DNA from: a virus
Lineage: Duplodnaviria; Caudoviricetes
IMG/VR virus record: IMGVR_UViG_3300006919_000235
Span: 1 to 31,895 of that record
Reading direction: 5' to 3' (one strand)
DNA: 31,895 bases
Positions 5,247-28,525 of the stretch are shown here, in pieces. Position 1 is the first letter of the stretch. Each line of letters starts with the position of its first letter. The position numbers and the translations under genes were made by a program. The notes under the pieces are model-generated. The model was given only the letters and a program-made list of their open reading frames with translations. It ran no database searches and was not told the origin of the DNA.

Positions 5247-6611
5247 ATGGCTAAAGCTCCTATCAAATCAGCAGTTAGAAGAAAAGCAACATATTCAGGT
5301 ATGCAAAAAGCGTCTATGTATGATGCTATGATGCAAGAACAAATGGGTAAAATGGCTGTAGAAAATATCTATGCCAACGAAAATCAAAAGCAACGTAATA
5401 TTACTGCTTTAGGTGAAGTAGTTAACTTTATGGACGCAAGACGCCAAGAAAAAGAGCGTATGCGTGAAGTAGAAAAAGGTGTTGCAATTGCTGAAGAAAA
5501 AGCTAATGGAACAGTTGTATATGATAAAGTAACACTTATGGATGTTTTTGAAGGTAAAAATAAATTGAGTGAAGTAGGTATGGAATCTTGGCAAATAGGT
5601 AAAACAAAATACGATGCCGCTGACATGAGAGCTTTAGCTCAAACTTATCAAACAAATAAAATGCAACAATTTATTAATGGAGAAATAGACGAACAACCTG
5701 TATTGCCTAAAGGTAGTGGATGGACATATAAATCAGGAGAAACACAACCTATATTAGGTACAGGATATTATGGAGTAAAAGCGGCTAAAGTATTACGTGA
5801 AGAAGATGCATACAAAGCTGGACAAATTATTTATCAAGCAGATAGGTCAACAAAGAGTTATGGTTTAGATAAATGGTCTTCTAAGTCTGAAGTCGTAGAC
5901 AAATTAATACAAGATAAATTTAGTCCAGATAGTGCAAACTATGATGCAGATTTAACATCTATGGTAGGACTTACTGATACAGAAAAGACTGAATTTACTG
6001 AAACTTATGCAGAATATAAAGACTTAGTAAGTATTAAAAAAGGCGCAAGAACAAAAGAACAAACAGCTCGTATAAAAGAAATACAACAATTTATGAAACC
6101 TTATTATAATAAGATTAGCGATAATATGGCTTGGGAAGATGTTGCTCCTTATATTCGTACAGCAGAATCGGCTGATAGAGAAATGATTATTAGAGAGAAT
6201 GAAGCTGGGTTAGGGTTTGATTTAGGTCCATACCAAATTAATACAAGATGGTTGTTTGCTGGTGATGGAACATTTCAAATGATGGCTGGTACAGATAAAG
6301 TATATGCACCTTGGGCTGAAATAGATACAATGTTAATGGGTAGTTTAAGTGAAACAGAAAGACAACAACTACCACAAGGTACTCCAACATATACTGGTAA
6401 AGAAAAAGGATTAGATTTAGGAGATTTTTACGGTGATAATTCTATGTGGAAACGTTATAAAAATAGAGATAATATTAATCCATTTATAGAAGAATATAGC
6501 GAAGAACAAGAATTATTAAAGAAAGCTGGTATTGTAGATGAAAATTTACAATTATTTAATGTAGATGCAAATGCAAGTCAAATATATACTATGGAAGACG
6601 AGGTAGAATAA
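5247..6611 (+). CDS. Internal virion/ejection protein with lytic transglycosylase (SLT/lysozyme-like) motif
   Basis: YIRTAES (catalytic Glu-Ser motif) followed about 18 aa later by DLGPYQINTRW, matching the D.G..QIN motif of SLT/c-type lysozymes. Confidence 0.6.
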   Translation: MAKAPIKSAVRRKATYSGMQKASMYDAMMQEQMGKMAVENIYANENQKQRNITALGEVVNFMDARRQEKERMREVEKGVAIAEEKANGTVVYDKVTLMDVFEGKNKLSEVGMESWQIGKTKYDAADMRALAQTYQTNKMQQFINGEIDEQPVLPKGSGWTYKSGETQPILGTGYYGVKAAKVLREEDAYKAGQIIYQADRSTKSYGLDKWSSKSEVVDKLIQDKFSPDSANYDADLTSMVGLTDTEKTEFTETYAEYKDLVSIKKGARTKEQTARIKEIQQFMKPYYNKISDNMAWEDVAPYIRTAESADREMIIRENEAGLGFDLGPYQINTRWLFAGDGTFQMMAGTDKVYAPWAEIDTMLMGSLSETERQQLPQGTPTYTGKEKGLDLGDFYGDNSMWKRYKNRDNINPFIEEYSEEQELLKKAGIVDENLQLFNVDANASQIYTMEDEVE

Positions 6612-7120
6612 TGGACCCATATTCAATAGCACAATTAGGATTATCAGCATATAGTATATTAAGCGGAGCTGGTGCTGAAGCAAGTGCAAATAGAGCGCAA
6701 ATAGCTTCTAACAATATACAAATAGAATTTTTAAATGATGCATTAGGATTTACAAAAGATACTGCACAAGCACAGCGTGAAGTTGCTGAAGACGAATTTA
6801 GATTTAGTTTTGAACAAGCTGGAATAGAATCTGGTACACAATGGGAAGGCATTGGTAGAACAATGGAACAAACATTGGATTTAAATAAATTTGCTAATGT
6901 AGGTGCAATAGAATCAGAAATGGATTTTTTAACTGATAAAATGGACCGAGCATTTCAATCTCAATATGTACAACTAGAACGAACAAGAGATGCTGGATTT
7001 GCAGCAGCAGATGAATATGAAATTAGTACATTAGCTTCTATTGAAAATCAGAAAAAATTATTAAAAAGACAAAATCAAAATTTATCAAAAAGAGATAGTT
7101 TTTGGGAAGTATTATTTTAA
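6611..7120 (+). CDS. Small internal virion (ejection) protein
   Basis: N-terminus MDPYSIAQLGLSAYSILSGAGAEASA followed by Ala/Gln-rich helix, like small podoviral ejection proteins; operon position fits. Confidence 0.55.
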   Translation: MDPYSIAQLGLSAYSILSGAGAEASANRAQIASNNIQIEFLNDALGFTKDTAQAQREVAEDEFRFSFEQAGIESGTQWEGIGRTMEQTLDLNKFANVGAIESEMDFLTDKMDRAFQSQYVQLERTRDAGFAAADEYEISTLASIENQKKLLKRQNQNLSKRDSFWEVLF

Positions 7121-7130
7121 AGGATAAACA

Positions 7131-8366
7131 ATGGCTGTAGAATACGCAAATATATTTAGAACATTAAACTATATGATGGAAAGTCGTGCTAGAAGAGAAG
7201 ACGCTAAAACAGAAGCATCATTAAGAGCATTACAAATGGCGCAACAAGAAGAACGATTTGACAAAGAACTTGCTTTTAAAAGAGAACAATTAGGATTACA
7301 ACAAGAAGAATTGTTAGCTAAAAAAGAAGAACGATTTATTAATAGAGCAAAAGGATTAGCACAAGTAGCATTAACGAATTGGGGTTCAGAAGCAAAAACT
7401 GTATGGAATACTACTTTTGATGGTTGGTATAGTAGCTTTTTAGATGAAGATGGTGCTATATCTGATAAAAATAAAAAAGCAATGATAGAAAGTTTAACTG
7501 GTAATGGAGACTTTGTATTTACTGACACAGCAACAGGCAAACCAATTACAATGGATGTTGCAGCAGCAGACAATTTGATTACACAAATGCGTGTGATAGA
7601 CAAATTAATTAAAGGTGGTGGAAGTGCTACTGGTGAATTAGATATTTTATATGGACAATGGGAACAAGCAACTGGAACTGCATTGACTAATTATAATGAT
7701 GGAAAACAATTTAGAGATGGATATAATAGATTGACTGCAGAATTACAACAAGTAGAACTAGGTGATTTTGATTTTAATATTTTACAAGACCAAATAAGTG
7801 GACTTAAAGATATGATATTAGATGAGTCATTACTAGGTGCAGACGAGTCAAATATACTACAACCAGATAAAAGCGAAGAAATAACGTTAGAAGGCGTATT
7901 AAACACCTTAGATTCTGAATCTATGATGCAATTTATTAATTTAGATAATAGCGAAGCTAATATGTTAGCACGTAAACAACAAATTGTAAAAGGAATACCT
8001 TATTTAAATGAATGGGCTGTAAAAATAGATGAAATGACTGTACCTTATGACGCAGATGAGAAAACAAAATTTAATGCATTAAAAGGGCAAATGGATATTA
8101 TTAACTATGAAATACGTAAAAGTCAAAATGCTTTAAAAGATTTAAATAAAGAAATTCAACAAGAAGTAAATCAACATAATAAATACATTGATTATAATGA
8201 AAGTATTGGATTAACAAGTGATATGAGCAATGGAAATATTTATGGACCTGAAATGCAAGAACAGCACAATCTTGAAAAATTATTATTAGAAACAACATTA
8301 GATGTGCTAGAAAATAAGAAACAAGAAATAAAACCAGCATACAATAAATTATGGAGAGGATGGTAG
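7131..8366 (+). CDS. Alpha-helical internal virion (ejection) protein
   Basis: 411 aa, N- and C-terminal coiled coils, AAGGA RBS, directly upstream of the large RNAP gene. Confidence 0.5.
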   Translation: MAVEYANIFRTLNYMMESRARREDAKTEASLRALQMAQQEERFDKELAFKREQLGLQQEELLAKKEERFINRAKGLAQVALTNWGSEAKTVWNTTFDGWYSSFLDEDGAISDKNKKAMIESLTGNGDFVFTDTATGKPITMDVAAADNLITQMRVIDKLIKGGGSATGELDILYGQWEQATGTALTNYNDGKQFRDGYNRLTAELQQVELGDFDFNILQDQISGLKDMILDESLLGADESNILQPDKSEEITLEGVLNTLDSESMMQFINLDNSEANMLARKQQIVKGIPYLNEWAVKIDEMTVPYDADEKTKFNALKGQMDIINYEIRKSQNALKDLNKEIQQEVNQHNKYIDYNESIGLTSDMSNGNIYGPEMQEQHNLEKLLLETTLDVLENKKQEIKPAYNKLWRGW

Positions 8367-8369
8367 TAA

Positions 8370-11300
8370 ATGCCAGATTTAAGTGAGTTAAGAAAAGGCT
8401 TAAACTTAGAACAAAAAGTAGAAAAACAATTTGAAGATAATTTAAAAGGAATTTCTACACAAACACCTACACAGATACCTAGTTCTCCTATAGGTCAAAC
8501 ACCTGTACAACAATCTGGTGGTATGATTGGTGCTAGACGTATTGAAGTAGATGAAAAGAATATGTTTGAAAACCTTGGTTCTGGATTATGGGACTTTGGT
8601 AGAGAAGCTGGAGAATCATTTGTAGATTTAGCATTAGGAGGAATACCAAGTGCCGTGAGTGATTGGGACCCAGCAGAAGGTGCATCTGATAGTTTAGGTG
8701 GTAAATTAGGACAAGCGGTAGGTAGTGCAGCTGGATTTTTAGTACCATTTAAATATGGTGCACAGGTTATGCGTGGTGTAGGTAGAGCATTTGCTGGACA
8801 AAAAAGTGCTACTAACGTTGCAAAAAGTATTACTAAAGATATTGAAAATGTTTTATCAAAGAAAGGTGCTATAAAATTTGGTAAAAAAGGAGAATTAGCA
8901 GATGGTATTAGTAAAACTGATGACATCATTGAATCATTTAAAAAACACGTATTAGACCCTGCATTAATTAATCCTATTAAAGGATTTGATGGAGCGTTTC
9001 AAACAGTAACAAAGCGTAATGAGTTTTCAAAACAAATTATGGATAACGCTTATAAAATGATAGATGATTTGGCTATGCAAAAAGGATTTAGAATTGATAA
9101 AGGTGTAGCAGAAAAAGCAATTAATTCTATTGTAAAAGATGCTTGGAAAGCGGTTGATGGTGTTCCTATTACTAGTATGCAATCACTTATTGCACAAAAT
9201 TTACATAGATTTATTCCATTTAATATGATGCAACAAGGCGGTAAAGTCGCAAACCTATATGGTCATTTAGGTGAAGAAGCGTTATTGTTTGCTGGTGTAG
9301 AAAATTTAATGCACGGAATTGATGTATTAGGTGGTAAGTTTGTTACAGGCGATGAAGTAGAAGCTGATTTTGGCGGAACAACAAAACACGCACTTATGAT
9401 GGGACATTTATTAGGTGCAGTAAGATTTGTTCCTGGCGGTGTTAGAGGTGGTATGTTACCATTAATGCGTGGTAATGGTGCGCAACGTATAGAACGTATA
9501 TTAAAAGCTAGTAAAAACCATTCTTCTACAATTGATGTTACTACTAAAAAAGGACAACAAGCGATTTATGACCAATATAATTTATTAGCAAACATTAAAG
9601 ATGATGCATATACAGGTGGTCCTATTGCATTAGACTTAAAGAATTTTGTAAAAAAACATCCATTATGGAATAGAATAGATGATGAAGCGGCTTCTACGCA
9701 AACATTTAGAGATATTATAATGAACAAATCACGTGGTAAAAAAGCATTACAACAAAAAGAAGATGCAACAATTATTATGCGTGATGCATTAAGAGATTTA
9801 AATAGACAAGTACAAGGTCAATGGAGAAAGAAGTTTGTAGCTGAGTTTGGAAAAGATATATTACAATCTACTCCTAGAATGGTATTAGGTGGTTATACAA
9901 TGGGTGGTATGAATGAAGTATTCTTAAATCCAAATATACCATTTGAAGATAAATTAATTAGTTTTATGACTGGTGCATTCTTAATGAAACACGGAAAAGA
10001 ACTACAATATAAAAATATTAATGGTAGTTATGAAGGAATGCAAGTATTAGGGTTTAAAGCTCACGGAGAATTTCCTAAAAAATTATTAGCACAAGAACAA
10101 TTAATGAATGCATTTGGTACTTCTATGAAGAATAGTCCTGAATGGTCTAATATTTATGTTAAAGCGTTAATTGAAACTGAAATACCTTCTATTGTACGTA
10201 ATCAAACACCAGAAAATTTAGAAACTTTAAATAGTATTCACGATATGGTAATTGCAGGTGGAAAAGGTAATGTAGGATTTACTACTGTAAAAAGTTTAGA
10301 TGTAAAACCAAAAGAAAATAATCAAATTAAAAATGATTCTCAGTATGAAAGTATTTATAATGAGATTATACACCAAGAATCTACAAACATCAAACGTGCG
10401 GCTCACGAAACAGAAATATTAAAATCTAAAAAAGAAAGACGATTTAAAGTTTGGAGTGAATTAACAAAAGCTGAAAAAAATAGATTTGTTAAAAGTGCTG
10501 ATAAAGAAGGATTAATGACTCGTTTAGATGTCTATGATAGATTTAATGATGCAAATGCTGTATTTATTAATGAGTTAAGAGATTTATTAGATGTTAATGC
10601 TACTAATTTAGCTGATGTATTTGGAGATGTAGGATTGTATACTAAGATACCTAATAGCTCACGTATAGAATTTAGACAAATTCGTATCAAATTATCAGGA
10701 GAACAACGTAAACAATTAGATGCTAGAACAGAAGCGGCTATTGATGGATACAATGAATTAGTAAACCTAATTACTTCAGAAGGTGTACATACAAAATCCA
10801 GCACTCCTTGGGAATTAACTGGTGATAAATTTGATAGCGGTAAAATGCAAGAACTATTAGCAACCTATAAACAAGGATTAGGTGAACTTAATGGTCGTTT
10901 AAAATTAAATGAAATTAGACAACAAGTAGACTACTCTACTGAAACATTAACAGATGCATTTAGATTTTTAGACTTACATAATGCAATTAGAACTGCTGCT
11001 GGTCCTAATGGATTAAAAAACATATTTGATACAAATGCAGAATTTGCTGATGTATTTATGGATGCAGATACAGCATTAAATGTTGTAGGTAATTTTGTAG
11101 TATCAAGAGGTAGAAATAGAGATAGACAATTAGAACATCAAATGAACGCTATCTTAAAAACTATTCGTCAAATGCATTCTAATTTAGACCCAGCATTAGG
11201 AAGTGCTAGTACTAAAACCATTACACAAGAACAAGCTAGATTTGTTATAAACACTCTTGAAAATGTTGGTATACACGCATTTAGCGGTGTATTAAAAAGA

Positions 11301-14300
11301 AATAATAGTTCCTTAAGTATTACAGAAATGGGCAAACAAGTAGCACAACGATACAATATAGAGCGTTTACGTAATAGCACAAAGAATAATGGTGAGCGTA
11401 TAGATGTAGAAGACATTGGCGTATTACAAGCATTAGAAGATTTTGGTATTACGAAAAACTTTACATTACGTTCTGTGTCTAGAGTATTGTTTGATGTCAA
11501 AACAGAAGGTTGGTTAGATAAAGCAAATACGGATGGTATTGAAGCAACTATTGAATCATTAAAACAACAAGGAGTTACCGAAAATAATGTAGGGATATTA
11601 GATGCATTATTGTCTATGCAAAAATTAGTAGAAAGAGGAACTTTAAAAGCAAATGAAGCTCCAGGGTTTTTTGATGATGTATTAGCGGCGTTACAAGGAA
11701 TTATTAGACCATATGAAATTAATCCAGTAAATAGCAAAGGTGAACCTGTAAGAAAAATTGATGGTAAAGATGTTATTAGTGGTGCTGGTGTATTAAATAG
11801 AAGTGGTGGTAATAAGTACGAAACTGGTATTACACCAGCAAAACTTTTAGAATTGAAGAATCATATTGAAACTATTAGAACAGAAGGTTTAACAAACGAA
11901 ACACAACGATTTATAAATGATATTACTGAGTCTATTGCTCGTACAGAAAATATGACTAATAAGCGTTTTAGATTGTTAATACTAAATTTAATGGGACAAG
12001 GTTCACGATTCAATTACAAGAGTGCTACAGAAGTATATACATTAGCACAAGAATTAAAGTTATACAATCCTAAAGGAGATAAGAAGTTTGCAGACGAAGA
12101 TTGGAGTGCTGAAACTATTAAAGAGTATAGTGAAAAGTTAGTCAATAGATTAAATCGTAATTTTAAAGATGAAAACAAAGCAATTGATGAAGTGTTAAGA
12201 AATGATAAATTCTTTGAAAAAGATTTTCCTGAACCAAAAGATGTTAAGCTAACTGATATTCTAAATAAGTATGATTTTGCTGAAGGTAGTAGATTTAAAT
12301 TGCCACCTGAAGCTGGTAGAACTACTGCAGACCACGTACAATATATGCAACGAATTTTAGAAGATGTATATAATAAAGACTACGATTTATTTATAAAAGA
12401 TTTCCAAAAAGATTTAGGAAAAGCAAAGATTGTAGATAGGGATAATGCTCCTAAAGAAATAGACATACAAGAAGCTACTATTGCTTTAAGTCAATTTATA
12501 CAAACAAAAAATAAACAAATTAAAGTAGTACGTTATGATTGGAATGGTCAAGAAAATAAAAATGTATTAACCTCAGAAGATTTAATACAAGAACCTATTG
12601 TAGTACAAATACTTCGTGGCGCTCAATCAGAATTTGGTAAAGAAGTAAATATTTTACAAGGTAAGGGAATTAATGATAAAGGTAATAGACAAACATTATC
12701 TGATGCTGGATTGCGTAATAATGCATTAGAAAACTTATTCCAAGGAACTTATGCTTCAATAGATAAAGCATTTGCTATTAGCGATATTTTTAAAACAAAA
12801 GAACAACTTGAATGGGAATCTGTAAACTCTTTTAATCCAGATGTAAACGCAAATCAATCATTTATTGCATTTCGTTGGGGAAAACAAGAGTATGCTTATC
12901 TTATCAAATCAGATAAAATAAACTTAGATGCAATTGCTAACAACTATGTAAAAATGTTAGATGCAAGATTAAAAGCAAATAAAGATGTTAATATAGATAG
13001 AAATAAATTATTAGAAGAAGTAAACATTAAAGAAATATCAGAAGGTGTTTATGAATGGAACATAGGTAATGATACAACATTAGCTACAGAAAATATGCAC
13101 AAAGTAATGAATGATTTAATCTATGATAGAATTATTGGTCAACGTTACTGGAATGAAAATATGCGTACGTTTGAAGGAAAAAATTTAAATGGATTACTAA
13201 AACGTGCATCATTGTTTAACAACATAAGTGCAGTAAGTCAAACAGATGCGTTAATTAAAATGCATTTGAATGCCTTAAAGCGTAAAGGACCTAGAGGAAA
13301 GTATGAAATTACTTTTGAGGGTAAAGAAGATGTTATAGAAGTATTATCTGATTTAGCTAATACAAAGAAACGCTGGAAACAAGTTACCGTAGCTGATGAA
13401 GTAATTGATGGTATTGATGTAAAGAACTCAGTAATAGAGCAAATTAGACAAGATATTGCTGAATTAAAAGCTGAAAATAAAACATTAGGCGATAAAGCTG
13501 AAAAAGAATTTAACGAATTAATAGATAGTAAAAAATTTTCTGATGCATCAGATGTAAATGGTATTACGTTTGTAAGCGAAAAAGTATATAAAGCACTAGC
13601 ATATTTAGCTGGGGAAACTGATTTTACAAGAGTAGGTGGTATTAAACCTATCATATTAGGTACAGGTGCTAATCAACAATTATTTGTAAACAAAACAGCT
13701 ATGGTAAATAATCCTAGAATAAAATCTATATTTGATGCAAATCAAGATGTAGCTTGGTTAACTTTTACTAGTGCTAGTAAACAAATAGGTGCATCTAGAG
13801 AAATTAACTTACTTCGTGCTGAAGATGTATTGAAACCAGGTTTTGTTATTGACAATGCGTTTAAACAAACTATTTTACCAGAAAACATTAATATTATTAG
13901 TACAAAGAAAAGTAAAGAATATGCAACATTATCTATTAATCATACTTCACATTTAAATACTAAAGAATCTAGAAAAGCATATTACTTGCAATATGTAGAA
14001 CCAAAAGTAACTAAAATTAAACAAGCAATTAGCGACTTTAAAGACCCAAGTAAATCTAATTGGACAAAAGCATATTTTAAAAGTTTAATGAATCAACGTG
14101 CAGAAACACGATTAAGCTTAGGACAAGAGATGTTATCTAGTGAAGGTATTATGGCGGCATTTGCTCGTAATAATGTACTACCAACTATTATGACTAGACA
14201 ATGGGAAAATATGATTAAAAACAATCTAGTAGATGATATGTTTAAAATTAAAACTGTAGGTGGTAATGCGGTATTATCTCCAACAGACTTTGGCGTAAAA

Positions 14301-17204
14301 GATATATATAGCGGTGAACGATTAAAGAATACATTAATTGTCGGTGAAAAGATTTATAATTTTGGTGAAGCTGAAATACCATATCTTGATGGTTTAAAAC
14401 CTATTGATTGGAAAAATGAAAATGTAAATTTAATTCAAAGAGTTAAAGGTGATTATGATAAAGTGATAGATGTATTTGCCTCAGAAAATAGTAAAATTAA
14501 ACAAGCGCTAGAAAAAGAAGGTATTAATCAAAACTCTTCATTAAATGACTTACAACAAGCGGTATATAAACTGGGTAAAGGTAAAGGTGAATATCAAGTA
14601 GCATTAGCTGTAGAACGTAATCCACATACAAAACCAAGTAGTGTAATGGTAGTAGGGTTAAAAGGATTCTTAAGTAAAGATATGTCTAATCAGTTTAATT
14701 TAAATAGTGTAGATGTTAAAAGAGCGGCTGAAGGAGACTTTGATATTGATACCGTAAACTATTGGTGGAACTCAAATAAAAACACATTAAGTGAATATGT
14801 TAAAGGTCGTGAAATGATACAAGATTCACAACCGCTTCCTAAAGAAGGTGGTTTGATGAACTATGAAGGATTACAAAACACAGCTGAAAGTATACAAAAA
14901 TATATGGCATACGAACAAAATGCTATGTATCTACGTGGTTCTTTAATGAATGCTAATAGAATTGTACAATATTTCTTAAGTAACCAAACTACAAGAAAAC
15001 AAAAATTTATTGATAGTGAAACTGGTAAATCAGCACGTGTAGTATTTGAGTTTGGTGAAGGAGCAAATAAAAGATATATTACTATTAGACAAGGAGCTTC
15101 TTTAAAGAAAGTATATCAAAAGATTGCAGACTATAATCAAGCAATACTTGACTATGAAAATGGATATAATCGTAATAAGTTTAGCGACAAGCAAAGTATT
15201 ATGGACGATATATTCTTTAATGCAAAAGACGGATTTTTTGTACAAGCAAAATTAATTACTACAAGACAAAAAGTACAAGGAAAACAAATAGAAACATCTG
15301 AACTTACAAGATTAGAAAATGCAAAGATTGATTCTAAAGATAAAGAAATTATTACAAAAGCATTAATACGTCCATACGAACAAATACTAAAACTATCTAA
15401 TAAGATTTATAAAGATGGTGAATCTAAAAGTGTAGGATGGAGAGACTTAGTATCTCAAGCAGAAGAATTTAATTATGCTATGAATCGTGCACAGTATTAT
15501 GCAAACAACTTAAATGGAAAAAAATGGAATAGTCAGGATATAGACTACTTTGGTGGATTTGCACAAGATGCTCGTTTAACAAATACATCTAAAACATCTG
15601 AGAACTTTATGCATCACGATAGAGTATTAGCTGAAATTATGCATATGAAAAATATTCAGTTTAGACCTGTAGGTAGAAAAGACAAATCAGAAACTATACC
15701 TTTTGCTGATGAAATAGCTGAATTAACTAATATGCCAATTAATGATATGGGTGATGCTATTGCACAATTCAACAGTAATTTTAAAAATGATGCAAGAAGT
15801 ATACAGGTAGCAAATGAAATACAAAATAGAATAGACAAACTAAAAAGAATACGTTCTAAACAAGCTAGTATTAAAGGTCAAGGTAATTATGATTCTTATA
15901 ATTATTATGATAGACAAATTAACAAATTAATAAAAGCAAAAGATGGTATATTAAATAACTTAGTAATCTATAAACCTGGTATGGATAAAAAAGGATTTCC
16001 AATTACAAATAAAGATTATGATGCTATTCGAAATGCTAGAATTAAATCAGAAGTATTTAAAGAAAAAACAAATCTTAAAAAAGATGCATTAACAAAAGAA
16101 GAATTTGATGCCGTTGTAAAACGTGTAGATAAAGACCTACAAGACAAAGGTATGCAGATAGATACTGTAAGAGATTCTGATATGATTAATACATTAGCTC
16201 TTATGGAAGGATTTGGATTCTATGGATATAAAGTAGGTGCAGAAATAGGATTTGCTAAGAATGAAGGACAATATAAATATATTGAATCTAAAATTAGAGA
16301 AATTAAACAAGATTATAATGCGGCTTGGCAAGAATTTTTTGCTAAAGATAAAGTAAGATGGCGTACTGAAAATGAAATTAAAGATTGGTTTTATAATCAG
16401 ATAGATAGTTTTTTACAAGGATTAGATTCTCAACAACAAACTTGGTTTATGTTGCGATTAATGACACCTGAAATGGATACTTCAACACTTGTAAATTATA
16501 ATGGTAGTTTTTTCTTTAAACCAACTACAACAAATGTAGAAAAATTTATTAACCTAGGATTAGGATATATGATAGACTCACAAACAAATAGTGCTTCTAT
16601 GGTAAAATTTGACACAATGCAAGTAGATGCATTCGTCAAAGGAATTGGTCGTAGTTATGAATATGTATACAATAGACTACATAATAGAGAAACAGATATT
16701 AAAGCATTAAATGAAGCTACAGGTAAAGATGTAGAACATTCATTCTTTGTAGAACCATTTGAAATTGCAACAGGACATAGTAAAGCGGAACTTGTAGATG
16801 CATTCTATCCTGGCACAGCTAGTAAAATGAGAGAACAAATGGAGTTTAGTAAGTTAGATGAATATAGTAGATTACAAAGTATGTTTGGTGTAGGTATGAT
16901 TAGAGATATTATTACCAATGGTAAAGAACTACAACTACCAACACACGTAATTACACGTATGAGTATGTATGGTAGACATATGCAACTTAATGGTATAGAA
17001 GGATTGCGTAGAGCTCAAGAAATGGACGATGCATTGTTCTTGTATCAAAAAGATAAAGGTAGTATATTTAACACTAGTGATACTATGTCTGGAGGTAGCT
17101 ATAATGGAGTCGACCATCTTGGTAGAAAGAAATACGGAAACGAACAAGCAAACCCAGAAGATGTTGCTAATAGACATATTGATGAACTAAAGAGGAACTG
17201 TTAA
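8370..17204 (+). CDS. Large single-chain two-barrel (DPBB) RNA polymerase, probable virion-packaged RNAP of the crAss-like type
   Basis: 2944 aa. Metal-binding GDFDID (DFDID at 14736-14750) is preceded by R.P (ERNPH, RNP at 14616-14624). Upstream conserved-Lys segments GGIKP...VNKTA...SASK. Located among ejection genes. Confidence 0.85.
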   Translation: MPDLSELRKGLNLEQKVEKQFEDNLKGISTQTPTQIPSSPIGQTPVQQSGGMIGARRIEVDEKNMFENLGSGLWDFGREAGESFVDLALGGIPSAVSDWDPAEGASDSLGGKLGQAVGSAAGFLVPFKYGAQVMRGVGRAFAGQKSATNVAKSITKDIENVLSKKGAIKFGKKGELADGISKTDDIIESFKKHVLDPALINPIKGFDGAFQTVTKRNEFSKQIMDNAYKMIDDLAMQKGFRIDKGVAEKAINSIVKDAWKAVDGVPITSMQSLIAQNLHRFIPFNMMQQGGKVANLYGHLGEEALLFAGVENLMHGIDVLGGKFVTGDEVEADFGGTTKHALMMGHLLGAVRFVPGGVRGGMLPLMRGNGAQRIERILKASKNHSSTIDVTTKKGQQAIYDQYNLLANIKDDAYTGGPIALDLKNFVKKHPLWNRIDDEAASTQTFRDIIMNKSRGKKALQQKEDATIIMRDALRDLNRQVQGQWRKKFVAEFGKDILQSTPRMVLGGYTMGGMNEVFLNPNIPFEDKLISFMTGAFLMKHGKELQYKNINGSYEGMQVLGFKAHGEFPKKLLAQEQLMNAFGTSMKNSPEWSNIYVKALIETEIPSIVRNQTPENLETLNSIHDMVIAGGKGNVGFTTVKSLDVKPKENNQIKNDSQYESIYNEIIHQESTNIKRAAHETEILKSKKERRFKVWSELTKAEKNRFVKSADKEGLMTRLDVYDRFNDANAVFINELRDLLDVNATNLADVFGDVGLYTKIPNSSRIEFRQIRIKLSGEQRKQLDARTEAAIDGYNELVNLITSEGVHTKSSTPWELTGDKFDSGKMQELLATYKQGLGELNGRLKLNEIRQQVDYSTETLTDAFRFLDLHNAIRTAAGPNGLKNIFDTNAEFADVFMDADTALNVVGNFVVSRGRNRDRQLEHQMNAILKTIRQMHSNLDPALGSASTKTITQEQARFVINTLENVGIHAFSGVLKRNNSSLSITEMGKQVAQRYNIERLRNSTKNNGERIDVEDIGVLQALEDFGITKNFTLRSVSRVLFDVKTEGWLDKANTDGIEATIESLKQQGVTENNVGILDALLSMQKLVERGTLKANEAPGFFDDVLAALQGIIRPYEINPVNSKGEPVRKIDGKDVISGAGVLNRSGGNKYETGITPAKLLELKNHIETIRTEGLTNETQRFINDITESIARTENMTNKRFRLLILNLMGQGSRFNYKSATEVYTLAQELKLYNPKGDKKFADEDWSAETIKEYSEKLVNRLNRNFKDENKAIDEVLRNDKFFEKDFPEPKDVKLTDILNKYDFAEGSRFKLPPEAGRTTADHVQYMQRILEDVYNKDYDLFIKDFQKDLGKAKIVDRDNAPKEIDIQEATIALSQFIQTKNKQIKVVRYDWNGQENKNVLTSEDLIQEPIVVQILRGAQSEFGKEVNILQGKGINDKGNRQTLSDAGLRNNALENLFQGTYASIDKAFAISDIFKTKEQLEWESVNSFNPDVNANQSFIAFRWGKQEYAYLIKSDKINLDAIANNYVKMLDARLKANKDVNIDRNKLLEEVNIKEISEGVYEWNIGNDTTLATENMHKVMNDLIYDRIIGQRYWNENMRTFEGKNLNGLLKRASLFNNISAVSQTDALIKMHLNALKRKGPRGKYEITFEGKEDVIEVLSDLANTKKRWKQVTVADEVIDGIDVKNSVIEQIRQDIAELKAENKTLGDKAEKEFNELIDSKKFSDASDVNGITFVSEKVYKALAYLAGETDFTRVGGIKPIILGTGANQQLFVNKTAMVNNPRIKSIFDANQDVAWLTFTSASKQIGASREINLLRAEDVLKPGFVIDNAFKQTILPENINIISTKKSKEYATLSINHTSHLNTKESRKAYYLQYVEPKVTKIKQAISDFKDPSKSNWTKAYFKSLMNQRAETRLSLGQEMLSSEGIMAAFARNNVLPTIMTRQWENMIKNNLVDDMFKIKTVGGNAVLSPTDFGVKDIYSGERLKNTLIVGEKIYNFGEAEIPYLDGLKPIDWKNENVNLIQRVKGDYDKVIDVFASENSKIKQALEKEGINQNSSLNDLQQAVYKLGKGKGEYQVALAVERNPHTKPSSVMVVGLKGFLSKDMSNQFNLNSVDVKRAAEGDFDIDTVNYWWNSNKNTLSEYVKGREMIQDSQPLPKEGGLMNYEGLQNTAESIQKYMAYEQNAMYLRGSLMNANRIVQYFLSNQTTRKQKFIDSETGKSARVVFEFGEGANKRYITIRQGASLKKVYQKIADYNQAILDYENGYNRNKFSDKQSIMDDIFFNAKDGFFVQAKLITTRQKVQGKQIETSELTRLENAKIDSKDKEIITKALIRPYEQILKLSNKIYKDGESKSVGWRDLVSQAEEFNYAMNRAQYYANNLNGKKWNSQDIDYFGGFAQDARLTNTSKTSENFMHHDRVLAEIMHMKNIQFRPVGRKDKSETIPFADEIAELTNMPINDMGDAIAQFNSNFKNDARSIQVANEIQNRIDKLKRIRSKQASIKGQGNYDSYNYYDRQINKLIKAKDGILNNLVIYKPGMDKKGFPITNKDYDAIRNARIKSEVFKEKTNLKKDALTKEEFDAVVKRVDKDLQDKGMQIDTVRDSDMINTLALMEGFGFYGYKVGAEIGFAKNEGQYKYIESKIREIKQDYNAAWQEFFAKDKVRWRTENEIKDWFYNQIDSFLQGLDSQQQTWFMLRLMTPEMDTSTLVNYNGSFFFKPTTTNVEKFINLGLGYMIDSQTNSASMVKFDTMQVDAFVKGIGRSYEYVYNRLHNRETDIKALNEATGKDVEHSFFVEPFEIATGHSKAELVDAFYPGTASKMREQMEFSKLDEYSRLQSMFGVGMIRDIITNGKELQLPTHVITRMSMYGRHMQLNGIEGLRRAQEMDDALFLYQKDKGSIFNTSDTMSGGSYNGVDHLGRKKYGNEQANPEDVANRHIDELKRNC

Positions 17205-23614: not shown

Positions 23615-24478
23615 CTAAAATATGTATCTTATTTCTTGCCACGGAACGTGTCGTTTCATAGCATTACGAAATGCGTTTATATAATGTCTTTTAATATCGT
23701 GTTTATATCTGATATTACGACCTCCATATTGACTTGTTTTAGCTTCTTGCAATTCACTTCTCCATAATAAGTTTTCGCCTTCTACGCCTTCTGTAAGATT
23801 AAACTTATGCATATCTTCGTTGTGGGTTAAGAAAATGCATTCTGCCTTTACTTTATGCTTAAACAAGTTATGTACGTGCGTATCTACTAAGTCAAATAAT
23901 TCTGCATATGCTTTTTTAGAATTTTCATATACTATTATTGGTGAGTAATTTACGTGTACATCATAACCAGCTTCTATAAAATCATTAATAGCTTTTATCC
24001 TATCTATAATTTTACTTGTTCCTGGTTCTAGTTTATCAGACAACTCTTGTGGCATTAGACTAAATCTAATACGAACTTTCTGTAAAGGGTTGAAAGATAA
24101 TAAGTCATTGTTTACATATTTTGTTGCTGCAGTACCCATAATCTGTTCGTTATGTTTAAATACACCAAACAACTTTTTCCAATCGTGATACTTTGCGTGT
24201 AATACATAATCTTCATTGCAACTAAAATCATATGTATAATATGTTTCGTGTGTTTGATTTGGTGTTTTTGGGTAAGGTAGTGTAATACTGTGTTGTATAA
24301 TAGCTTTTATTATATCATCTGTATTATCAGCAATCGTTACACCAGACTTTACGTGTCTTCTCATATAACAATAATTACATTTAAATAAGCAACCGTATCC
24401 AAAACTAGGTGTAATAAAATCACTACTTCTACCAGACTCTCTAATTAACATAGATTTACGATTAACTCTTTTTATCAT
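23615..24478 (-). CDS. splB: Spore photoproduct lyase-like radical SAM protein
   Basis: SSDFI.P...GC...CNYCY (CxxxCxxC), DFSCNED (position of the SPL H-donor Cys), ATK, R.RFSL.P, EPGT..I..RI.A. Confidence 0.85.
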   Translation of the reverse strand: MIKRVNRKSMLIRESGRSSDFITPSFGYGCLFKCNYCYMRRHVKSGVTIADNTDDIIKAIIQHSITLPYPKTPNQTHETYYTYDFSCNEDYVLHAKYHDWKKLFGVFKHNEQIMGTAATKYVNNDLLSFNPLQKVRIRFSLMPQELSDKLEPGTSKIIDRIKAINDFIEAGYDVHVNYSPIIVYENSKKAYAELFDLVDTHVHNLFKHKVKAECIFLTHNEDMHKFNLTEGVEGENLLWRSELQEAKTSQYGGRNIRYKHDIKRHYINAFRNAMKRHVPWQEIRYIF

Positions 24479-24708: not shown

Positions 24709-25090
24709 TTTCCCTCCAAGAATTTTTTAATTTATCATCAACTTTTTTCATTTTTTCTACTATTTTTTGATATTTATTAGTATGAAAAATTATATTATTT
24801 TTATTCAAGTGTCCTTCGTGTTTAATACTCCACGCAGTATTTTGTTTAGTATCTTGTATTTCTTGTTTCGTTGGTGTATATGAGATAGGATATTTATCTA
24901 CACCATCTTCATAAAACTCAGCTTCCCTCAAATCAAATATTTTTTCTGGACTTGTTTCTTCTTGACAACTATCACACCAATAACTGCTATCGTCTACAAA
25001 ATCTACAAGTTTTTCTGTATTAATATTTACCCAAGCACTTTGAGAAACATTTTCGCTTTTACAAGATTTACATACAAATTTACTTGTCAT
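24698..25090 (-). CDS. Zn-ribbon protein
   Basis: CKSC.S.NV...WCDSC; GAGGAG RBS. Confidence 0.65.
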   Translation of the reverse strand: MTSKFVCKSCKSENVSQSAWVNINTEKLVDFVDDSSYWCDSCQEETSPEKIFDLREAEFYEDGVDKYPISYTPTKQEIQDTKQNTAWSIKHEGHLNKNNIIFHTNKYQKIVEKMKKVDDKLKNSWRENGK

Positions 25091-25383
25091 ACATCCTCCT
25101 CTACGTGTTCTACTCTAAATTGTTCAATCCAAGTAGATTGATAAGTAGCTCCATATTTTCTAGGTAATCCTGCAAATATCCACCAAGCACGTCCGTACTT
25201 TTGTGCATTTTCTTCAGCTATCTTAAGACCCTCCTCACTCCACGGGTCTACAAATTTAAAGTCTTTTAACCTTTCTTCAAAGCTTTTTTTTGTTTGCATT
25301 TTTTTATATGAAGGGTGCGATTCTTTTTTTAATTTTCCTTCATTTCTACGTTGCCACGCTTGTTCTCTACTATTTAATTTCAT
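25087..25383 (-). CDS. Hypothetical protein
   Basis: 98 aa ORF with GGAG RBS, first gene downstream of the structured non-coding region. Confidence 0.65.
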   Translation of the reverse strand: MKLNSREQAWQRRNEGKLKKESHPSYKKMQTKKSFEERLKDFKFVDPWSEEGLKIAEENAQKYGRAWWIFAGLPRKYGATYQSTWIEQFRVEHVEEDV

Positions 25384-25400
25384 TTTATCTCCAAAGGTTT

Positions 25401-25889
25401 AGGGTAATAATACCTCACGGTGACGGCTTTACATATTACCCTGTTATGTAGCTAGTTTCGGTTTCCATGGACTTTATGCAAGACTCACCTTCTGTTGCTA
25501 CTTCTAATTTTTTAGAAAGATTCGCTTCAAATTTGAGCTCTAACTCTGTCCCCAACCGATTATATTAAAGGTATCGCCCTAGGGTTCGGTCCGTCATTGA
25601 GTTTTACAATATGGTATTTCTCCATATCAACTTTCTAATTCTTTAGGCGGCTTATAAACTCTAGAGTCTACTGGCTAATCCATCACCGCCCAATTTAACT
25701 ACAGAATAAGGCAAAACCTTGTGTACCTGGTATTAAATAGTTATCGGCTTCAACTATCACAAGGAATGATTATATGTGCGTCTTCTGTAGTTTTACTAGC
25801 AAGAGAATAGACTTTGTAGAGAGGGTCACGCTACGTTCTCTATATGACTTCTGTACAGTAGCCAGTCTCTATCAAGTGGTCTATATCTC
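25401..25889 (-). ncRNA. Candidate structured ncRNA, or array of six tandem stem-loop domains
   Basis: Closing stems: 25401-09/25434-42, 25448-52/25497-501, 25512-19/25631-38, 25646-50/25686-90, 25697-706/25783-92, 25803-12/25879-89, with nested inner helices. A/C mismatches on + become G-U pairs on the minus strand. Confidence 0.65.
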
Positions 25890-25913
25890 AGGGACCTTTT
25901 ACGTTTCAGGAAC

Positions 25914-26699
25914 CTACGCTCTTGCTAATCTTGTTATTGTAGGATATATCTGATTTTCCATAATATGAACAGATTCTCTATCACGATTTGTAGAATGTGT
26001 GGACACATATGTAGCCGCATTCAATAAATCCCAATAATTATTCATATCGTTATTCAAAACATATCTAGTAAACTCTTCAAGGTATACACTTGGCATAAGT
26101 TTACTCATTTCAATAATATGTCTTTTCTTTAACTTGGTATTAATCAGATTAGGAAATTCTGTTTCAAAGATTTCCACTAACATACCTACTGTTCGAGAAA
26201 TATTATCCTCTAATTGGTCAATACTAGTGTTACTATTTTTATGTACTGCTTTTTTACTAGTCAATACATTACCAATAGTTAAACCATTTAAACAAACCAA
26301 TCTAAATGCACCACCCATAATATTAACTGATGTGCTACCATCATAACTATTAGAAACAATTAATTGTGGATTAATTAAATCGCCTTTGTTTACTTTTACT
26401 TCAGTTTTAGGAAAGTTCCACTTCCAGATAGCACGTTGTCCACCAGAAAATGTTTTGGCTTCTACGAGTTCTGTTTGTGTACCTCTTAAAACTTTTTGAA
26501 CTTTGTTGACAACTGACCTATTATCAACAACTTTATATTCTTCAGTCATACAAGACAATACATCTCCTGTATCTTCTCTTATGATGAATTTATGACCTGT
26601 ACCAGTTACTAAAGTTCTTTTCTTTCCTTCAGCTTTCATAAATGTCGCTGGAACTTCTTTAACTGGAAATAGGGTTTCCTCCATTGCTACTATAGACAT
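25914..26699 (-). CDS. DUF932-like phage protein
   Basis: R.DTG.VL....Y..V.N, GG, and NSYDGS.S.....GAFRLVCLNGL...H signature. Confidence 0.85.
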   Translation of the reverse strand: MSIVAMEETLFPVKEVPATFMKAEGKKRTLVTGTGHKFIIREDTGDVLSCMTEEYKVVDNRSVVNKVQKVLRGTQTELVEAKTFSGGQRAIWKWNFPKTEVKVNKGDLINPQLIVSNSYDGSTSVNIMGGAFRLVCLNGLTIGNVLTSKKAVHKNSNTSIDQLEDNISRTVGMLVEIFETEFPNLINTKLKKRHIIEMSKLMPSVYLEEFTRYVLNNDMNNYWDLLNAATYVSTHSTNRDRESVHIMENQIYPTITRLARA

Positions 26700-27081
26700 T
26701 TTTATACTCTCCTCTTTCTACTTTTACTCTTTTTGGTGTTTTACCAAAACGTTTAATTTCATTTTCTAACATCTTAGTTCTATTTGCGTATCCATCAATA
26801 ATCATTCTTTGCAAATAAGCAAATCCTTTGCCTTTATATGCGTGTTCATCTGTTATATAATTATGTATAACCTTTTCAACTGCATCATCAGGTATCTTTG
26901 ATATTGCCTGTAAGAAATAAAATGTTTTCTGGTTATCTTTATCAGAAGGTATTTCTTTTCTAATTAAGCGTATCACATCTTTTAATTTTTCGTTATGTGT
27001 TCTTGCTTCTATTAGTTCGATAATTCTTCTTTGTGGATTATATTTTCTTCCGTTAATATGTCCACAACATTCACATTTCAT
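26659..27081 (-). CDS. Hypothetical protein with N-terminal CxxC, possibly a replication accessory
   Basis: 140 aa ORF, MKCECCG, helical body with GKGFAYL; function inferred only from context. Confidence 0.6.
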   Translation of the reverse strand: MKCECCGHINGRKYNPQRRIIELIEARTHNEKLKDVIRLIRKEIPSDKDNQKTFYFLQAISKIPDDAVEKVIHNYITDEHAYKGKGFAYLQRMIIDGYANRTKMLENEIKRFGKTPKRVKVERGEYKNVYSSNGGNPISS

Positions 27082-27691: not shown

Positions 27692-27701
27692 AATTCCTCC
27701 T

Positions 27702-27954
27702 TTTATACGAGGGCTCTAAGTAGCCATACCAGTATTTACATGACCAGGAATATCCTGGTTAATCTCAATACGTTGAACCCTCATATAAATTACATTTTTT
27801 ACATTATATTTCAAAGAGATAAATGAATCCATCAGATATATTTCATTGTTTATGTGGAGTTTCGCTACCATAGAAGCTCTCTTTAATATTAGACTTGGGG
27901 TCTGTTATATATGAAGATAATCAATTGATTATAGTTCACCGACCCCGCTGTCTA
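27702..27954 (-). ncRNA. Second candidate structured RNA region, three tandem stem-loop domains
   Basis: Stems 27702-16/27775-89 (two G-U pairs on minus strand, inner ACCAGGA/TCCTGGT), 27813-19/27878-84 and 27890-902/27941-54 (inner ATAATCA/TGATTAT). Confidence 0.6.
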
Positions 27955-27958
27955 GTAA

Positions 27959-28525
27959 TTAGAATGGTAAGTCATCTGCTTCCAATTCATCAGAACTAAT
28001 GCGTTCTCCGTCTTCCCACTTATGTACTTTACCTACTTTAAGTGATGAACGAGTTTCGCCATCTGCATTTTTGAACTCAGTATTGACTAACTGAATTAAA
28101 CAAGGTAAACCCATTACATCAGCTTCTTCAACCATTTGTAATTGCGTATTACCATTGTCGTCTTTACCAAAAGCCATACCAATACTTGCGAAGAACTCAG
28201 CATAACGTTTGTTTTTCCAAGAATCTTCTTCAGATAAGTTTGGTGTTAACCATATACCTTTATCAGTACGATATTCCTTGCCTACAGCTTGTTGTCCAGT
28301 AACACTAGCACCTGTTGGTACTAATTTACCATTGTTATCTTTCTGCTGTTCAGCAAACTCAATATCTTTGGCTTCTTCTGCTACTTTAAAAGTTACATTA
28401 AATACATATGCACCATTATATTCTTTTGACTCAAACTTGCTAATATGAGCTGGATATGTACCTTCAGGTATTGGTTTATATGTGTTTTTACTTTCATTGT
28501 ATATTGCATTTTCTATCGGTTTCAT
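27959..28525 (-). CDS. Single-stranded DNA-binding protein, DUF669-like
   Basis: PIPEGTYPA.I N-terminal motif, OB-fold-like strands, acidic C-terminal tail DDLPF. Confidence 0.8.
   Translation of the reverse strand: MKPIENAIYNESKNTYKPIPEGTYPAHISKFESKEYNGAYVFNVTFKVAEEAKDIEFAEQQKDNNGKLVPTGASVTGQQAVGKEYRTDKGIWLTPNLSEEDSWKNKRYAEFFASIGMAFGKDDNGNTQLQMVEEADVMGLPCLIQLVNTEFKNADGETRSSLKVGKVHKWEDGERISSDELEADDLPF

Follow-up and report, generated by a model that had tools for sequence, protein, structure and literature searches.

What can a 530-nt stretch without a gene be doing inside a phage operon? The window (the whole 31,895-nt stretch of DNA analyzed) is a 31.9-kb viral record with an estimated completeness of about 60%, and the array considered here is surrounded by a minus-strand operon running from 31.6 kb to 20 kb. 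By Pfam and PHROG profile annotation, this operon encodes a PD-(D/E)XK exonuclease, Sak, an SSB-like protein, DUF932, a spore-photoproduct-lyase-like protein, Dam methylase, DnaB and a resolvase; complete relatives (~53 kb) carry portal, terminase, capsid and endolysin genes. The gap at 25384-25913, on the minus strand and 3' of the DUF932 gene, consists of six unrelated folded units, A–F. The array is real, is structured on the transcribed strand and behaves as a tradable set of small RNA genes. Its features, in the direction of transcription, are:

25914-26699, minus strand: DUF932 gene (PF06067, E = 1e-18), upstream neighbor of the first array
25797-25927, minus strand: unit A, complete at the DUF932 site in 14 of 23 close relatives
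25825-25862, minus strand: pseudoknot core of unit A, by alignment count
25697-25792, minus strand: unit B, closing stem of 9-10 bp with nested helices; at the DUF932 site in 4 of 23
25643-25693, minus strand: unit C, closing stem, invariant segment of 13-16 nt and tetraloop hairpin; 11 of 23
25512-25638, minus strand: unit D, four-way junction with an invariant central arm; 7 of 23
25448-25501, minus strand: unit E, shortened closing frame with stem 25448/25497; 10 of 23
25401-25442, minus strand: unit F, 9-bp stem 25401/25434; 3 of 23
25087-25383, minus strand: 98-aa orphan gene 3' of the first array, with no Pfam, PHROG or Atlas match

An earlier note on this DNA had described the gap as six closed RNA domains. 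All 11 stem pairs that it named lie where it had placed them, and at 25645/25691 and 25651/25685 the plus strand has A/C and C/A, hence G-U on the minus strand. As it had noticed, the gap is GC-richer than its 2-kb flanks (0.391 against 0.314 and 0.307), holds no open reading frame of 60 aa or more (longest stop-free frame, 57 codons on the plus and 42 on the minus strand) and shares no repeat among its domains, there being no repeat family longer than 14 nt and no tandem repeat within it. ARAGORN confirmed the lack of tRNA or tmRNA in the window, and the proposed Rfam check gave no match in the window and none in the gap even at E ≤ 10. The division into six closed domains stands in that all stems are present, but E is a shortened copy, and A extends past the bounds described into DUF932; the stem of A was found, but the domain also holds a pseudoknot that had been missed.

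The comparison of folding energy with shuffled sequences that had been suggested gave a qualified answer for the whole gap (minus strand, z = −1.9, 5 of 100 shuffles as good; plus strand, z = −1.25, 12 of 100), energy alone being weak evidence. Taken singly on the minus strand, with unit boundaries picked post hoc, the units gave z-scores of −2.1 (A), −3.3 (B), −2.6 (C), −2.0 (D), 0.0 (E) and −2.3 (F); folding of the minus strand as DNA was weak for A, C, D and E (z of −0.6 to −1.5). The real support for folded units is comparative. DUF932 neighborhoods were gathered from viral and metagenome contigs, yielding 24 distinct loci in which DUF932 identity is 71% or more; one was cut off and left out, and 23 complete sites were counted. 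Units were sorted by hand into about 26 families. In the relatives' loci the stems covary, as the earlier note had asked to be checked, with a G-U bias on the transcribed strand: among 43 varying pairs, 20 show G-U on that strand and 3 show A-C. Since each family holds 6-13 related sequences, the independent events behind these counts are few.

Unit A comprises a closing stem (25914-25927 with 25797-25810, the start coinciding with the last DUF932 codons), small 5' hairpins and a long bulged arm that ends in the pseudoknot; the stem previously named for it lies at 25803/25879. Across its alignment 98.8% of cells are paired, and the crossing 5-bp helix is kept in 12 of 12 variants, with an A-U/G-C swap. 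Stem 1 of the pseudoknot pairs 25862-25858 with 25834-25830 and stem 2 pairs 25848-25844 with 25829-25825, so that the 3' strands of the two stems are contiguous; in stem 2, 60 of 60 cells are paired over 12 distinct sequences (A-U to G-C, 6:6; U-A to U-G, 8:4). Unit B, with a stem at 25697/25783 plus two inner stems, shows two one-sided G-U changes and no two-sided change in six variants. In unit C (stem 25646/25686), 144 of 144 cells are paired across nine variants, and all six varying pairs show G-U on the minus strand. Unit D has a stem at 25512/25631 that encloses three inner stems, and its central arm does not vary among variants. The two variants of unit F, the final unit before the ribosome-binding site of 25087-25383, lie one two-sided change apart (A-U/G-C). 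Invariant unpaired segments occur in B, C and D, and units A and C share an 8-nt complement.

The wiring of the pseudoknot in A, with long first and middle loops and contiguous 3' strands, is also seen in unit g5 and at loci L141 and L174. The pattern recurs in unrelated units, with 26 matches, overlapping ones included, against 9 on the reverse strand and 2-12 in eight shuffles. The pseudoknot of the SAH riboswitch has been termed LL-type in the source consulted (PMC4604430). Several loops change sequence yet remain self-complementary. The idea that they serve as palindromic dimerization sites was dropped, as 6-mer palindromes with at least two G/C occur at 8.1 per kb against 10.4 in shuffles; this lack of enrichment, together with a non-palindromic variant of unit I in which only a 2-bp mini-stem is kept, means that the loops are better read as tight hairpins. 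Within genes of the fetched loci, 6-mer palindromes that contain G/C are rarer than after shuffling (5.8 against 8.4 per kb), as restriction avoidance would lead one to expect. The set of 101 gaps used for the counts of 7-mers, palindromes, rRNA and tRNA matches and knot wiring may include a few mis-called gene starts.

Manual reading of the 23 complete sites gave 19 arrangements, from no unit up to seven, with gaps of 0-582 nt; the longest is the seven-unit arrangement, and no gap follows DUF932 in L033, L039 and L126. In the nearest relative (L001/L031), whose DUF932 is 99.6-100% identical, precisely D and E are missing. Alignment ends fall at or within 3 nt of AU-rich linkers at 15 of 38 distinct positions, where 11% would be expected (p about 6e-6), and contigs from sequencing runs skip B, replace B by 133 nt or insert 70 nt between D and E; the order of units is mostly kept. 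Modularity is also nested: frames E, H and U enclose differing interiors, and single arms of A and D are cleanly deleted. Thus L038 has lost the arm of A and kept its frame, the last arm of D is missing by deletion in L026, G611 and G612, and frame E in relatives is a 10-bp closing stem that encloses no fewer than four different interiors. In the window, E no longer has the outer pairs of that stem, so some copies may be decaying. In six of six relatives the units are 89-99% identical, whereas four-fold sites in the adjacent DUF932 are 59-69% identical, which would reflect either selection or recent transfer. Two loci carry two divergent copies of one frame in tandem (array 2 of L028, g2-g2; L512, H-H), an arrangement suggesting that new units can arise when a copy is duplicated and its interior then changes.

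A second array of the same kind follows the SSB-like gene:

27959-28525, minus strand: SSB-like gene (phrog_378, E = 3e-6), upstream of the second array
27702-27954, minus strand: second array, units g1, g2 and g3
27889-27954, minus strand: unit g1
27811-27885, minus strand: unit g2, with a pseudoknot wired like that of A
27702-27789, minus strand: unit g3, with 217 of 217 cells paired

Two-sided changes occur at 8 of the 17 pairs of g3, which is the final unit before the ribosome-binding site in every example of the second array listed; a search with its model gave firm matches in close relatives only, distant ones having E ≥ 0.035. The crossing helix of g2 has two covarying pairs, with the window's row and one other lying one column off register, and its G-N-A-A segment varies at N only. 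A 51-aa open reading frame overlying this array (27716-27871) is probably spurious. Units are found at either site. In G005, where there is no gap after DUF932, the post-SSB site spans 802 nt, occupied by A's frame, B, C and seven more units; unit A lies after the SSB gene in L039 and unit B in L129, so that A, B and C are all found there in one or another of these three. Free-standing A starts with the same letters as the DUF932 end, and this short homology may have allowed units to pass from one site to the other.

Arrays of similar style extend beyond the close relatives: distant ones, with DUF932 40-50% identical, carry unrelated closed units. The hairpin tip of one g3 variant (L021, 1958-2051) holds an inserted short g4 loop sequence, from which it follows that hairpin tips are swapped too. 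Long structured gaps of 716-984 nt also lie at the start of the early region in G004 (12804-13787), G611 (5454-6169) and G612 (6488-7346), and Rfam gave no match on the stretches of these gaps that were scanned. About 2 kb upstream of DUF932, L148, L152, L162 and L177 have units with long C/U-rich loops, which could pair with ribosome-binding sites. The most enriched 7-mer apart from the ribosome-binding site is GGTTGGC, in 18 contexts against 0.8 expected. As GGUUGGC(U/A/G) it occurs in unrelated units, often within a hairpin loop or in a single-stranded stretch toward the 3' side (for example in L131, L138, L141, L147 and L152, near 44040 in G611 and near 18240 in G612); such a word might conceivably read a tRNA end or the Gly anticodon loop. 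Two loose pattern scans yielded a single true match in one and no g2-like knot in the 120 loci of the other, and six of seven new contigs from a further scan were rejected as chance coding matches.

The units also cross between distant phages. The exact core of D is present in 13 viral contigs, three of them new. G611 (48 kb, 99% complete) has no match to DUF932 and carries unit D. G611 and G612 are 29-34% identical to G004 in capsid, portal or terminase and match none of seven tested G004 replication genes; in both, D is 95-99% identical over 96-105 nt. Units of the D, E, M, H, U and J types stand behind other genes in G611-G613. Because D is near-identical in these distant phages, G611 among them having no DUF932 match, the units are independent of DUF932 and of any one phage lineage, and DUF932, as far as these gene contents go, is not a required partner. 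A shared host would be the simplest common factor of the phages that share units. Searches found no cultured relative or host of this phage group: none of 301 genomes from the class of G008 matched, 20 of 301 genomes from the order of G006 had no more than AT-rich matches of 19-39 nt, and five contigs from metagenome-assembled genomes of four unrelated lineages resemble mis-binned phage.

Several neighboring genes merit mention in their own right. A small Trp-rich orphan family follows the array in most close relatives and unit D in G611, and occurs in L505; a similar gene, by eye, directly adjoins DUF932 in the array-less L033, L039 and L126. It is possibly a partner of the units, or else a neighbor in a variable region. 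The 2,944-aa protein encoded at 8370-17204 (plus strand) has no Pfam or PHROG match, and is only 27% identical to its G004 counterpart, over 390 aa. The spore-photoproduct-lyase-like radical SAM gene (23615-24478, minus strand), with 3,580 relatives found, is present in G005 and absent from the G004 list of open reading frames.

How do these arrays compare with known phage RNAs? No Rfam 15 family reached its gathering score in the window or in sets of 5 and 10 related loci; this includes the xrRNA family and self-cleaving ribozymes, and no hammerhead core pattern occurs in the 101 gaps. The large ornate RNAs are not matched by 19 arrangements, an empty one included, in 23 loci. ARAGORN at relaxed scores of 95 and 90 found no tRNA look-alike in 103 gaps, and two poor matches at 85. 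The gap lacks the repeats of a CRISPR array or of Racrs and gave no match to CRISPR-DR models. Tandem near-identical repeats of the type III antitoxin (pseudo-ToxI) kind are likewise absent from it. Each type III antitoxin unit contains a classical H-type pseudoknot, from which the knots of A, g2 and g5 differ by a long middle loop and a last loop of 0-1 nt; none is shown in B–F. No reverse transcriptase or Nop-domain protein, as retron, DRT or TIGR systems would call for, turned up in the 28 (Pfam) and 33 (PHROG) proteins of the window or in 15 others, a scan of ~60% of the genome and part of the relatives' open reading frames. T7-type RNase III processing hairpins appear not to fit folds that differ and stand in tandem without intervening genes. 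Beyond chance, the units resemble no known antitoxin, CRISPR repeat, tRNA or rRNA piece, and antitoxin-mimic, CRISPR-like and self-antisense functions found no support.

The closest model for a possible mode of action may be the phage RNA counter-defenses, that is, the pseudo-ToxI repeats of phiTE (PMC3475682) and the Racrs (PMC10651486). As described there, these too are non-coding, vary by recombination and may neutralize host factors; they are, however, repeats or single copies of one recognizable host RNA, whereas the arrays mix about 26 unrelated folds with neither repeat nor identified host template, the repeat and mimicry comparisons having failed. The PeSLs of T4-type phages are intergenic stem-loop cassettes tied to modular shuffling (PMC2839356), and like them the arrays lie in variable, modular regions; but the PeSLs of that account are repeated promoter-plus-terminator units that flank genes, whereas array units all differ and are themselves the cargo, and 25384-25913 has no promoter or terminator site. 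Fremin et al. 2023 reported covarying intergenic viral motifs from IMG/VR (PMC10690425), and seven of their table entries have DUF932 downstream, whereas the array units lie downstream of DUF932. The main text of that paper does not contain 'array', 'tandem' or 'adjacent'; four short motifs were not found in its supplements 3-6, nor six dataset identifiers in files 3-4, and single units may be catalogued in its alignments. T4 RNAC/RNAD and the T5 tRNA regions yield stable small RNAs of unknown function, believed to arise by cleavage of a single transcript; several small structured RNAs from one phage transcript are likewise proposed for the array, but those RNAs lie among tRNA genes, whereas here there is no tRNA and units are exchanged singly. 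GOLLD, ROOL and OLE share with the array a size of several hundred nucleotides and a multi-domain build with pseudoknots, but each is a single molecule with a fixed core, and in the array nothing is obligatory. On sequence comparison no known family fits, and no description of such unit arrays was found in the literature searched, which excluded most subscription papers.

Contigs from RNA libraries lie on the array in seven of seven RNA runs examined (8 of 24 listed runs were examined), one of them spanning the second array (27700-27930); in run X10 both contigs within 20 kb fall in the gap. The runs had been chosen for containing words of 25100-26700, the contigs are assemblies and the libraries may include DNA, so the contigs show presence only and nothing on strand, ends or level. 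In several runs contig depth is highest over the array, a measure that cannot rank regions, and stretches not covered by contigs carry no weight either. As for targets, the longest match of the units to the rest of the window is 12 nt, against 12-15 nt in shuffles, and self-antisense action was therefore rejected; a 17-nt match in the same sense, seen in G004, is missing from the variant in the window. Mimicry of, or pairing with, rRNA or tRNA was rejected too, counts lying within the shuffle range for three bacteria (the orientation of one 23S copy was unverified). The searches found no partner or target of any unit.

We propose that each array is a set of separately folding units drawn from a pool of about 26 families and traded singly by marine phages. 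The earlier suggestion that the minus strand carries a polycistronic cassette of small structured RNAs is borne out by whole-unit gain and loss, relocation, transfer between groups, covariation and G-U bias; the function that it offered, decoy or aptamer, would still be a matter of interpretation. No promoter-like or terminator-like site is listed in 25384-25913, and the gap would thus be transcribed by read-through within an early or middle operon. RNase E prefers single-stranded AU-rich sites, and a host endonuclease of this kind could cut the transcript at the linkers; paired 5' and 3' ends and pseudoknots would then protect the released RNAs. Paired ends, AU-rich spacers and the lack of promoter or terminator would fit a read-through transcript cut into stable pieces, just as free position, optional presence and distant exchange would fit accessory genes under host-driven selection. 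Exchange may proceed by recombination over short homologies, located in the linkers and in shared closing stems, and the phage's Sak-type annealing protein and exonuclease probably assist it. The released RNAs could act as decoys or inhibitors of strain-variable host factors in defense or RNA metabolism. That the units are processed small RNAs which bind host proteins, defense factors possibly among them, and which phages trade as a repertoire, we hold with moderate confidence; folding, minus-strand G-U bias, unit-wise gain and loss, relocation and near-identical distant copies are the observed part of this reading. Compact folds, invariant junctions and the lack of complementarity to phage, rRNA or tRNA favor shape-based binding of host proteins over the alternatives. 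In a bolder form, possible but doubtful, the units would be an RNA-only counter-defense arsenal of unrelated small RNAs with exchangeable frames and cargo, each jamming an immune protein or soaking up a signal; islands of dozens of such RNAs traded between distant phages of one host would be an equally tentative corollary.

The units might instead be cis elements of the operon mRNA, that is, processing sites, exonuclease roadblocks or stabilizers that set the levels of flanking genes. They do sit within an operon whose genes run in their own direction, nucleases can be halted by closed stems and pseudoknots, the DUF932 stop lies within A and g3 always ends just before a ribosome-binding site. 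Yet G005 strings as many as ten different units together without an intervening gene, no unit follows DUF932 in three close relatives, other phages carry the same units behind unrelated genes, and interiors are conserved beyond what a roadblock needs; we consider this unlikely overall, although g3 alone may have a cis role. Base-pairing small RNAs, whose invariant loops would pair with host mRNAs or host small RNAs, would account for the invariant single-stranded segments and for frames with exchangeable interiors, and ribosome-binding sites could be bound by the C/U-rich loops of distant relatives; examples of such sRNAs in phages exist (PMC12197685). Invariant loops, however, fit ligand binding equally well, and the absence of any self-target above shuffles, of excess matches to rRNA or tRNA of three bacteria and of an intrinsic terminator makes this rather unlikely as well. 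Stand-alone aptamers that soak up immune signals or metabolites would suit the riboswitch-sized junctions, the pseudoknots with A-rich loops, the invariant joining strands and the lack of expression platforms, but we think them improbable, given that many units are simple rods and that no riboswitch family matched in the window or 15 other loci scanned.

Equally improbable are features of the DNA itself (single-strand origins, recombination hairpins or miniature mobile elements) or neutral slippage debris. Genes for SSB, Sak, exonuclease and helicase do adjoin, slippage removes closed hairpins as units, and G-T pairs occur in single-stranded DNA too; but, besides the weak DNA folding of four units, families are mostly single-copy, terminal repeats covary without keeping their sequence, the G-N-A-A of g2 varies at one position, and slippage accounts for loss but not for gain, relocation or transfer. 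Least probable of all is one large multi-domain RNA with optional domains, like GOLLD, ROOL or OLE. The A–C complement and the mostly kept order speak for it, but the A segment of that complement is already used in A's own stem, and Rfam gave no match. No unit is obligatory and the gap is absent from 3 of 23 close relatives; optional units, division over two sites and distant transfer led us to reject the earlier note's 'one large ncRNA'.

Phage accessory genes are generally assumed to encode small proteins, and the RNA weapons known from phages consist of repeats or of single mimics. In these arrays, units that encode no protein behave as accessory genes do: their number varies, their position is free and they have recently passed between phages whose capsids are ~30% identical, which implies selected functions invisible to protein-centered annotation. 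That units are gained, lost, moved and traded one by one makes it likely that they work as small RNA genes directed at the host cell. The roughly 26 short candidates are easy to synthesize and could be screened against defense systems, host proteins and small molecules, and the recurring pseudoknot wiring is worth solving. Were the cis reading true, the units would be new RNA-stabilizing parts; were the arsenal reading true, the arrays would be the RNA counterpart of anti-defense protein islands.
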